This document shows positions 3,612 to 5,235 of a stretch of DNA of 7,526 bases, one piece after another. Under the pieces are notes generated by a model. That model had not been told where the DNA came from and did not search any database. It was given only the letters and a program-made list of their open reading frames with translations. The stretch lies in IMG/VR virus record IMGVR_UViG_2545824711_000016. One strand, 5' to 3'. Each line of letters starts with the position of its first letter. Within the stretch, counting starts at the first letter, position 1. The position numbers were made by a program, and so were the translations under genes. Source of the DNA: a virus (lineage: Duplodnaviria > Heunggongvirae > Uroviricota > Caudoviricetes).

Positions 3612-4195
3612 TGGCATTCAGAATGAGTGAACAACCACGGGCCATAAAAATTTATAATCTGCTGGCCGGAACTAATGAATTTATTGGTGAAGGTGATGCA
3701 TATATTCCGCCTCATACAGGTCTGCCAGCAAACAGTACCGATATTGCACCGCCAGATATTCCGGCTGGCTTCGTGGCTGTTTTCAACAGTGATGAGTCAT
3801 CGTGGCATCTCGTTGAAGATCATCGGGGTAAAACGGTTTATGACGTGGCTTCCGGCGACGCGTTATTTATTTCTGAACTCGGTCCGTTACCGGAAAATGT
3901 TACCTGGTTATCGCCGGAAGGGGAGTTTCAGAAGTGGAACGGCACAGCCTGGGTGAAGGATACGGAAGCAGAAAAACTGTTCCGGATCCGGGAGGCGGAA
4001 GAAACAAAAAACAACCTGATGCAGGTAGCCAGTGAGCATATTGCGCCGCTTCAGGATGCTGCAGATCTGGAAATTGCAACGGAGGAAGAAATCTCGTTGC
4101 TGGAAGCATGGAAAAAGTATCGGGTATTGCTGAACCGTGTTGATACATCAACTGCACCTGATATTGAGTGGCCTACGAACCCTGTCAGGGAGTAA
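3611..4195 (+). CDS. tfa: Tail fibre assembly protein (chaperone), lambda Tfa-like
   Basis: 194 aa, [39 protein letters not shown]...APDIEWP..., matching what I recall of lambda Tfa. The ATG overlaps the stf stop (TAATG at 3609-3613), suggesting translational coupling; GAGG lies about 8 nt upstream. Confidence 0.9.
4032..4172 (+). repeat. Direct repeat copy 1 (3' end of tfa)
   Basis: gtgagcatattgcgccgcttcaggatgctgcagatctggaaattgcaacggaggaagaa...atattgagtgg is repeated at 5081-5221 in the same orientation, with roughly 85-90% identity by eye. Confidence 0.8.
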
Positions 4196-4208
4196 TCATT
4201 GGGATTAT

Positions 4209-4258
4209 GCCGCAGCACGTCTTAAGCAAGAACGTGCTGCGGTTGGATGCTATTTTTT
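4209..4258. terminator. Hairpin between convergent tfa and methyltransferase genes; candidate shared terminator
   Basis: Perfect 11-bp inverted repeat ccgcagcacgt (4210-4220) / acgtgctgcgg (4232-4242) with an 11-nt loop containing CTTAAG. A T-run (tttttt, 4253-4258) follows on the + strand after a 10-nt spacer, which is not ideal. There is no U-run for the minus-strand transcript. Confidence 0.45.
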
Positions 4259-4906
4259 CCCTGAAGCGGAAAACATTACTACAGTACCTTGAACCTTGGT
4301 TTTAACATTCTCGAAATGCTCTGAGAGTATATGTGTTAAGCCTTCTTCGGAATCTTTTGTGTTTGAAAAGATGCCTTTCTGATTGTAAATGCGCATCAGT
4401 TTTTGACCGAAGCTATTGTGCACAACTCCATCGCCAAGAATTGTGGCTCCGTATAGAGTTCCATCGTCAGTTAAGGCCTGCGCCGCATTGCGTATTACAC
4501 AGCTTTTTGTAGATATATTTCCAGGCAGGCAGTGAAGAAGGTAAAACATGGAAATGGAATCAAATTGACCATGTAACGCTGCGGGATAAGGTTCAAAAAC
4601 ATCATGGCTAATTTTATGTTTAATTTTTGATTCCCCAGCCCTTGTCGATGCCGCGTTCAGGCTAGCTTCGTTCAAATCCATTAAAGATATCAGACTACTC
4701 TCAGGTACGTGAGTAAGGTAAAACCCAGTTCCAACGCCAATATCCAGATGGTTGTTACCTAAATGTTCCAGAAAGTGTGGAAGAAGGTGTTCCTTTGTAG
4801 GACATCCCCATGCAAGCCGATTTGATACTCCCAAAACCCACCAGTCATAAAGCTTTAGGGTAAGTGGTGTGTAAATTTTAGCCCCATCATCTGTGTTTTT
4901 TTTCAT
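4250..4906 (-). CDS. ybcY: Class I SAM-dependent methyltransferase (small-molecule type), prophage cargo gene
   Basis: Minus-strand ORF (track 4250..4915, from GTG). The ATG at 4906-4904 with GGTGA upstream is the more likely start. It carries the motif I signature LDIGVGTGFY, an acidic residue after beta-2 (LMDLNEA) and a hydrophobic-Asp motif (FDSISMFYLLHCLP). No DPPY/PCQ-type DNA methyltransferase motifs are seen. The symbol is assigned from synteny with the K-12 DLP12 tfaD-ybcY-tfaX-appY order as I recall it. Confidence 0.7.
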   Translation of the reverse strand: MKKNTDDGAKIYTPLTLKLYDWWVLGVSNRLAWGCPTKEHLLPHFLEHLGNNHLDIGVGTGFYLTHVPESSLISLMDLNEASLNAASTRAGESKIKHKISHDVFEPYPAALHGQFDSISMFYLLHCLPGNISTKSCVIRNAAQALTDDGTLYGATILGDGVVHNSFGQKLMRIYNQKGIFSNTKDSEEGLTHILSEHFENVKTKVQGTVVMFSASGKK

Positions 4907-4974
4907 TAGTTTCACCGTGTTATAGTTTTATTTGTGAATTAAATCAATTATGGCAATGAATTACAAGGGGTTAA

Positions 4975-5235
4975 ATGCTGCCGCAGCATAGCGATATTGA
5001 AATAGCCTGGTATGCTTCAATACAGCAGGAGCCGAATGGCTGGAAGACCGTCACCACACAGTTCTACATCCAGGAATTCAGTGAGTATATTGCGCCACTG
5101 CAGGATGCTGTAGATCTGGAAATCGCAACGGAGGAAGAAAGATCGTTGCTGGAAGCCTGAAAAAAGTATCGGGTGCTGCTAAACAGTGTGGACACTTCCG
5201 TAGCACCAGATATCGAGTGGCTTATTCAACCATAA
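4975..5235 (+). pseudogene. tfaX: Tail fibre assembly gene remnant (3' fragment) with in-frame TGA
   Basis: The ORF 4975..5160 ends ...[25 protein letters not shown] at a TGA where the intact tfa has TGG (Trp). The same frame continues [24 protein letters not shown] to TAA at 5233-5235. There is no Tfa N-terminal domain, and a TAA sits immediately upstream of the ATG. Confidence 0.75.
5081..5221 (+). repeat. Direct repeat copy 2 (within the tfa remnant)
   Basis: Homologous to 4032-4172 in direct orientation; carries the TGG to TGA change at 5158-5160. Confidence 0.8.

Follow-up and report, generated by a model that had tools for sequence, protein, structure and literature searches.

The stretch of DNA analyzed here, 7,526 nucleotides (nt) of a Caudoviricetes virus (IMG/VR record IMGVR_UViG_2545824711_000016; hereafter the window), holds a methyltransferase gene that lies, in opposite orientation, between an intact tail fibre assembly gene (tfa) and the reading frame tfaX, which contains a second copy of the tfa 3' end. 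Within a DLP12-type lambdoid prophage this region forms the distal ybcY-tfaX segment; the equivalent genes in Escherichia coli K-12 are tfaD, ybcY and tfaX. We consider it probable that the methyltransferase gene is a single-gene moron, that tfaX was formed once by fusion, and that the direct repeat of tfa sequence is the fossil of a mosaic joint. This joint is ancient and common to approximately 70% of E. coli genomes, and is not specific to the genome from which the window derives. The features on which the argument depends are as follows.

3611-4195, plus strand: tfa, intact, 194 amino acids (Pfam Caudo_TAP, 150 bits; phrog_105)
4019-4175, plus strand: proximal repeat copy, coding for the C-terminal part of Tfa, conserved among Tfa proteins
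4209-4242: hairpin rich in guanine plus cytosine (GC), with arms GCCGCAGCACGT and ACGTGCTGCGG, closing the late operon, with tfa and the methyltransferase gene converging on it; a plus-strand T-run follows after a 10-nt gap
4238-5061, minus strand: cassette proper, i.e., methyltransferase gene, spacer and the first ~29 codons of a small gene (blastn against Citrobacter freundii L029, 825 nt, 91.2%)
4250-4906, minus strand: ybcY-type class I S-adenosylmethionine (SAM)-dependent methyltransferase gene, intact, 218 amino acids
4919-4947, minus strand: putative sigma-70-type hexamers TTGATT (4942-4947) and TATAAC (4919-4924) with a 17-nt spacer, upstream of the methyltransferase gene and present in Citrobacter too
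4975-5235, plus strand: tfaX, short chimeric Tfa-like open reading frame (ORF), interrupted in the window by an in-frame TGA (5158-5160) and hence a pseudogene (RefSeq records of close relatives: 'internal stop; missing N-terminus')
4975-5078, plus strand: 5' part of tfaX, from a 79-amino-acid phrog_3893-type gene (phrog_3893 match at residues 3-37; full-length relatives; three-way junction alignment)
5068-5224, plus strand: distal repeat copy, coding for the tfa C-terminal domain (Pfam Caudo_TAP positions 75-105, 29.7 bits)

The initial annotation of the window had described two repeats at 4032-4172 and 5081-5221. These turned out to be the core of a longer direct repeat of 157 nt (4019-4175 and 5068-5224, spacing 1049), whose copies align significantly and without gaps, with 130 of the 157 positions identical (83%; blastn E = 1e-43). 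In a sliding comparison the breakpoints were sharp (~4019/5068 and ~4175/5224), and identity collapsed beyond them. The repeat corresponds to residues ~137-189 of the 194-residue Tfa, i.e., to its C-terminal part, and the distal copy covers only profile positions 75-105 of the 131 in the full two-domain Caudo_TAP family (PF02413). Tfa proteins are described as having two parts, an N-terminal domain that binds the fibre and is variable, and a helical C-terminal domain that serves oligomerisation and is conserved (PMC9608196).

The first 35 residues of tfaX are not Tfa-like and match phrog_3893. Full-length relatives of this type, 79-80 amino acids long depending on the start codon, occur in Klebsiella phage Kp4882-3 and in Citrobacter. 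In Citrobacter freundii the full-length small gene is divergent from a 90%-identical methyltransferase gene, with a spacing of 63 nt vs 69 nt in the window, and the small gene is the original divergent neighbour of the methyltransferase gene. In a three-way alignment of the junction, the window agrees with its small-gene parent as far as TCCAGGAA (~5069-5076), and with its tfa parent from CAGTGAG (~5079) onward. Where the switch occurs, both parents have a short stretch of microhomology in common (TCCAGGAA vs TGCAGGTA). The alignment and this microhomology thus show that tfaX is an in-frame chimera, in which ~35 codons of the 79-amino-acid gene and the C-terminal part of tfa were joined by an illegitimate event at the level of microhomology.

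The surroundings of the small gene deserve separate mention. In both Kp4882-3 (L020:4004-4571) and Citrobacter (L029:3307-3941), the 79-amino-acid gene is followed by a UmuD-like ORF with the motif GFPSPAADY or DFPSPASDY, which is split in Citrobacter, and DinI genes lie close by in several loci. Judging from these neighbours, the small gene may be part of an accessory module related to the SOS response.

An 891-nt probe (4210-5100, from the hairpin to just inside the distal repeat) was found in 3,798 of 5,426 complete E. coli genomes (~70%; coverage at least 80%, identity at least 97%), with a median of one copy per genome and a maximum of four. The cassette was also present, at a coverage of at least 80%, in 14 records of sequenced phages, among them PhiR26_1, PhiR68_2, Kati, ev243, and 2G7b, which are induced temperate phages. 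A comparison of seven lineages gave one and the same 5' edge for the distal tfa fragment and several different 3' ends. What adjoins the fragment is the AT-rich region upstream of appY (window, K-12, PhiR68_2) or a hydrolase-ompT region (PhiR26_1, 2G7b); in O157 the fragment is cut by IS66, and in AH21E028 it extends to a complete tfa 3' end with its stop codon, followed by the same hairpin as that behind tfa in the window. Phage Ayreon shows the order tfa 3' remnant, hairpin, 36 nt of the methyltransferase 3' end, spacer, and small gene, which amounts to a ~660-bp deletion of the methyltransferase gene. The small gene of Ayreon continues unfused past the junction in a Citrobacter-like form, but it is decayed and has a stop codon. 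This arrangement implies that the two-gene unit sat behind the lambdoid late-operon hairpin before it was fused to the distal tfa sequence. Together, these sequences indicate a single origin of the tfaX junction, with unfused and deleted intermediates surviving elsewhere.

The region upstream of the cassette varies. Where it consists of katN-yciEFG (O157) or pinQ-ynaE (PhiR68_2), homology to the window starts exactly at the foot of the hairpin (~4210). Phages whose fibre modules are of a non-lambda type (2G7b, Ayreon, and PhiR49_2) retain a 3' remnant of tfa directly before the hairpin (L009:3880-4000, L010:2866-3000, L011:2881-2997), which indicates that the tail of tfa repeatedly stays in place when fibre modules are replaced. 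In PhiR49_2, the remnant and the hairpin are present without the cassette. Among related phages, the methyltransferase gene is thus absent from PhiR49_2 and deleted in Ayreon, and the left boundary of the cassette is variable. Given that the cassette lies behind such different modules, its 'bracketing' by tfa sequences depends on which fibre module is upstream. As an aside, O157:H7 carries a stress block of manganese-catalase, yciE, yciF, and yciG genes between tfa and the hairpin-methyltransferase unit (L005:2331-4544), i.e., further cargo in the same hot spot.

The best-surviving alternative, which was also the interpretation in the initial annotation, takes the repeats as the scar of cargo acquisition by recombination between tfa genes. 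In this model, homologous recombination or a Campbell-type single crossover through tfa inserted the cargo and left one complete and one 5'-truncated tfa. The topology fits, as complete tfa, insert, and 5'-truncated tfa follow one another in direct orientation, and the distal copy of AH21E028, with its whole tfa 3' end, stop codon, and hairpin, looks like such a product. Nevertheless, the right junction is not a crossover within tfa: the 5' edge of the distal copy is fused, at a microhomology, to the unrelated phrog_3893-type gene. Furthermore, the methyltransferase gene and an intact small gene are divergently arranged without any tfa in Citrobacter, and the remnant of the same pair behind the hairpin of Ayreon is unfused and decayed. 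The cassette with its distal fragment also occurs behind neighbours other than tfa (katN-yciEFG in O157, pinQ-ynaE in PhiR68_2) and behind the non-lambda fibre module of 2G7b. We therefore find acquisition by tfa recombination improbable.

Two other origins of the repeat were rejected. In-situ tandem duplication is unlikely, as the repeat copies are 83% identical vs a cassette that is 97-99.7% conserved among lineages, and the same distal copy and junction occur behind unrelated upstream modules. Insertion of a transposon or insertion sequence is at odds with repeats of 157 nt at 83% identity, with the lack of inverted repeats at the cassette ends, and with the lack of a transposase in the cassette. 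Candidate 'empty-site' recombination products (H22-H24) were ordinary tfa genes whose 3' ends had been joined by BLAST to the distal copy, and not deletion products.

Under the favoured reading of a single fusion, ~35 codons of the 79-amino-acid gene would have joined the part of a tfa gene encoding the C-terminal domain, which came from another fibre module. The fusion may go back to a deletion or to illegitimate, offset exchange involving two lambdoid genomes. Later, the conserved tfa 3' ends and the hairpin would have acted as homology patches for the swapping of upstream fibre modules, and such exchange would place the cassette behind many different upstream genes. Such an origin of tfaX makes the direct repeat a likely fossil of a mosaic joint and not a trace of cargo delivery by recombination between tfa genes. 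The proposal that tfa genes serve as recombination substrates agrees with their conserved 3' ends, but delivery of the methyltransferase gene by this route is not supported.

The methyltransferase gene itself appears to be a single-gene moron. Its presence is patchy, since PhiR49_2 is without the cassette and Ayreon is a deletion derivative, and its GC content deviates (41%, compared with 48% for tfa and 52% for stf, the side tail fibre gene). These features, together with a putative promoter region of its own, agree with the earlier view of the gene as cargo. In K-12, genomic systematic evolution of ligands by exponential enrichment (SELEX) showed that the ybcY/tfaX spacer contains a site for the RpoD holoenzyme and is bound by H-NS, and TTGATT-17-TATAAC was assigned to ybcY (PMC3946193). 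A stricter consensus promoter scan did not call the hexamers at 4919-4947. In the lysogen the gene would be transcribed leftward from this region, probably under modulation by H-NS.

The hairpin downstream is predicted to be stable on both strands (plus, -28.5 kcal/mol, z = -3.9; minus, -25.4 kcal/mol, z = -4.8) and is kept in O157, PhiR68_2, 2G7b, PhiR49_2, Ayreon, and AH21E028. It was not called by a simple terminator scan. Because there is no U-tract on the methyltransferase strand, it is only a putative terminator in that direction. A separate element, the perfect 15-nt palindrome ATGCTGCCGCAGCAT (4975-4989), opens the tfaX ORF; the methyltransferase ATG, of which it is upstream, is 69 nt away. 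Its sequence is similar to that of the left hairpin arm behind tfa (ATGCCGCAGCACGT from 4207), and a shorter, shifted palindrome occupies this position in Ayreon. The palindrome may bind a protein or may have arisen by chance.

The initial annotation had called the gene an intact class I methyltransferase of 218 codons, and this was confirmed. The protein is 218 amino acids long from the ATG at 4906 (221 from an alternative GTG at 4915), full-length homologues across Enterobacterales have 218-224 amino acids, and the ORF is neither frameshifted nor truncated relative to them. Profile searches recovered the SAM-binding fold, with Pfam Methyltransf_12, _23, _25, and _11 all over the gathering threshold. 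All invariant columns of a 33-sequence alignment are present in the window protein, among them DIGVGTG, D77, D102, D116/S117, and an HCLPG motif. Motif I (DIGVGTG, residues 55-61) and the acidic D77 are also kept in a 66-sequence alignment. The HCLPG motif and an invariant N-terminal motif, YDWWV...SN..AW.C, are specific to the family. The earlier statement that the K-12 counterpart is a pseudogene likewise proved right: RefSeq describes the gene in a K-12 derivative as 'frameshifted', and the K-12 allele reads TTAATAAAAAAAC where intact alleles read TTAATGAAAAAAAAC, i.e., 2 nt were lost at the ATG and adjoining A-run, which removed the start codon of the 218-amino-acid form. Beyond this lesion, K-12 ybcY aligns gap-free.

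The ratio of nonsynonymous to synonymous polymorphism (pN/pS) was about 0.17 among eight phage-borne copies. Against distant homologues, nonsynonymous divergence (dN) was 0.22-0.41 and synonymous divergence (dS) was saturated. The gene is thus under purifying selection. The family comprises 410 clusters at 50% identity (E <= 1e-30) and includes chromosomal, stand-alone homologues in Enterobacter, Yersinia, Klebsiella, Erwinia, and Testudinibacter. A Salmonella homologue lies at a prophage end, between an integrase gene and tail-side genes that include an opposite-strand DUF4376 gene facing it. No recurrent partner gene was found next to the homologues of nine groups; the gene was always monocistronic, with long upstream spacers.

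Several points weigh against the reading of a moron with a single, relic fusion behind it. An exchange between two genomes and an intragenomic deletion may fit the data alike. The distal copy is only marginally closer to tfa alleles of other phages (87-92%) than to the resident tfa over the same spans (85-88%), which on its own is a weak argument for a foreign source. The support for the putative promoter comes from in vitro SELEX in K-12, and the assigned -10 hexamer nearly abuts the methyltransferase ATG, leaving almost no leader. Finally, tfaX as a pure relic has to be reconciled with the intact tfaX-type ORFs of 82-101 amino acids, which are common and form large clusters.

The last point bears on the possibility that intact TfaX of 88-89 amino acids (phrog_2341, function unknown in PHROGs) is functional, and that selection keeps the repeat. 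As a free oligomerisation domain of Tfa, for example, it could promote or poison the assembly of fibres of the resident phage or of superinfecting ones. Besides the abundance of intact forms and their status as a PHROGs family, the in-frame nature of the fusion and a SELEX-assigned promoter facing tfaX are compatible with such a role, and the retained part lies within the conserved oligomerisation domain of Tfa (PMC9608196). However, the fibre-binding N-terminal domain is missing, and tfaX was inactivated independently several times among the lineages compared: by the TGA in the window, K-12, and PhiR68_2, a 7-bp deletion in 2G7b, IS66 in O157, a deletion in E2348/69, and replacement of the C-terminus in PhiR26_1. 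The tfaX of this window is certainly a pseudogene. A selected function elsewhere seems doubtful to us, somewhat more so than acquisition by tfa recombination, and we treat tfaX overall as a decaying relic.

With regard to the enzyme, the AlphaFold2 model (33-sequence alignment) is a confident single-domain Rossmann structure with a predicted local distance difference test (pLDDT) score of 91.5 and a predicted template-modelling (pTM) score of 0.88, and it has the seven-stranded alpha/beta fold of class I SAM methyltransferases. In a Foldseek search against the PDB, the top match was the phosphatidylethanolamine N-methyltransferase 8ys9 (E = 1e-11, template-modelling score 0.61-0.66), which is statistically indistinguishable from JHAMT, polyketide C-methyltransferase domains, phosphoethanolamine methyltransferases, NodS, and many more. 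Sequence and profile searches of the PDB (a single sequence and two profiles) aligned only the Rossmann core of ~100 residues, with BelI/CysG-N16, XrdM, NodS, PmtA, JHAMT, and UbiG. No NCBIfam family came near its cutoff, e.g., PmtA with 15.7 bits vs a cutoff of 390 and RquA with 16.9 vs 175; the window protein had no match at E <= 0.001 and members of its family had weak, sub-threshold ones. Membership in PmtA is not indicated. Curated cutoffs for UbiE/COQ5, UbiG, BioC, and NodS were not reached either. Placement in a subfamily by profile and structure was therefore successful as far as the class I Rossmann fold, but no characterised subfamily matched. In PHROGs the protein belongs to phrog_2132 (function 'unknown'), and PADLOC gave no meaningful defence-system match. 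Literature on ybcY, tfaX, b0562, and WP_000239881 was confined to incidental mentions without a function, and a targeted literature search yielded no description of a tail-fibre-associated methyltransferase moron.

Judging from fold and motifs, the substrate is probably a small molecule and not DNA, and the enzyme would act alone in the lysogen on a small metabolite or a lipid-like compound. A bolder and speculative proposal, to which we assign a low probability, is that this prophage family of orphan methyltransferases is selected to remain intact as it performs an undescribed lysogenic-conversion or counter-defence reaction. Candidate substrates would be the head group of a membrane lipid (as with PmtA), a molecule resembling a quinone, or a small metabolite that is toxic or serves in signalling. 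K-12 would then be a natural null, so that the activity was never noticed.

Modification of nucleic acids, by an orphan anti-restriction DNA methyltransferase or an RNA/tRNA methyltransferase, is very unlikely: phage orphan methyltransferases are often anti-restriction enzymes, and PADLOC returned a faint mad2 match (E = 0.003), but the 218-residue single-domain protein has no (D/N/S)PP(Y/F/W) or PCQ motif (a lone ENV tripeptide is present), no DNA-methyltransferase Pfam match, and no target-recognition domain, some of its homologues stand alone on chromosomes in non-phage contexts, and its best fold neighbours are small-molecule enzymes. The earlier statement that DNA-methyltransferase motifs and a partner restriction gene are absent was thus upheld by the motif scan, the Pfam search, and the ORFs of the window, none of which is a restriction gene.

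The gene order in the window is the 3' end of lom, stf, tfa, the leftward methyltransferase gene, tfaX, a spacer, appY, the 3' part of ompT, and an IS3-family element. The features outside the cassette are as follows.

264-3611, plus strand: stf, side tail fibre gene at the end of the phage late operon (ORF; Pfam phage_tail_N, Gp34_trimer, Collar, Phage_fiber)
5781-6530: appY
6780-~7168: 3' part of ompT, interrupted by the IS3-family element

Matching records read argU-intD ... tfa, methyltransferase, tfa fragment, appY, ompT, so that the locus forms the right end of a DLP12-type lambdoid prophage located at tRNA-Arg (argU), with appY, ompT, and envY beyond it. For a K-12 derivative, RefSeq lists an N-terminally truncated tfa, the class I methyltransferase gene as 'frameshifted', and a piece of tfa that has an internal stop. 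An ORF of 45 amino acids (4168-4305, plus strand), which covers the tfa end, the hairpin, and the methyltransferase 3' end in antisense, is annotated in RefSeq as 'hypothetical protein' or 'nucleocapsid protein' and is almost certainly a spurious call. The tfaX-appY spacer (5236-5780) is extremely AT-rich (GC 25%). This spacer corresponds to the published tfaX/appY 'promoter island', which is H-NS-silenced and has divergent transcription starts and the strongest RcdA SELEX site (PMC3661553, PMC4469952, PMC3535384). The IS3 terminal sequence TGATCCTACCCACG begins at 7169, just past the break in ompT, and an ORF for the transposase C-terminus lies at 7199-7414 (minus strand). The ompT::IS3 junction was present in one of the 5,426 complete genomes (strain 510016), the methyltransferase gene of which is interrupted by IS1.

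The locus, its genes, and the pseudogene status in K-12 are already known from annotation (K-12 ybcY/tfaX; RefSeq 'class I SAM-dependent methyltransferase' and 'tail fiber assembly protein, internal stop'), and both the mosaicism of lambdoid phages and the occurrence of morons downstream of their fibre genes are classical. The chimeric nature of tfaX is a neat detail that will hardly surprise phage genomicists. Its origin can be reconstructed stepwise from surviving intermediates, and this history illustrates how the conserved 3' ends of a chaperone gene and a hairpin become recombination patches for the exchange of host-range modules. The methyltransferase, very widespread, under purifying selection, and dead in K-12, is a cheap and well-defined candidate for screens of lysogenic conversion or anti-defence. 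If TfaX were functional, the 89-amino-acid chimera may disturb the fibre assembly of competing phages.

The closest known arrangement is tfaD-ybcY-tfaX-appY-ompT in the DLP12 prophage of K-12, which matches the window in gene content, order, orientation, hairpin, spacer, and chimeric tfaX junction (98-99% nucleotide identity). The window differs from it in that stf and tfa are complete and the methyltransferase gene is intact, whereas K-12 tfaD is N-terminally truncated and the start of ybcY is lost; on the other hand, ompT of the window is interrupted by IS3. Invertible tail-fibre segments of the Gin/Cin/Pin type (Mu, P1, e14) contain duplicated fibre and tfa sequences, and require inverted copies and a serine invertase. 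The window resembles them in having duplicated tfa sequence at the end of the fibre operon, but an invertible segment was rejected as the source of its repeat because the copies are direct and the window contains neither an invertase ORF nor matching inverted repeats. The methyltransferase shares the Rossmann fold, DIGVGTG, the acidic residues that contact ribose and adenine, and a size of ~210-230 amino acids with UbiE/COQ5, UbiG, BioC, NodS, PmtA, JHAMT, and BelI/CysG-N16. Unlike these small-molecule methyltransferases, it reaches none of the curated thresholds and has its own N-terminal and HCLPG motifs. Morons of lambdoid phages are independent transcription units between conserved genes, a concept from the comparative genomics of HK97 and HK022. 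The cassette is similar to them in its single gene, putative own promoter region, deviant GC content, variable presence, and location downstream of the tail-fibre genes, the equivalent of the b region. In contrast to them, it includes the fossil of a former neighbour fused to a tfa fragment.

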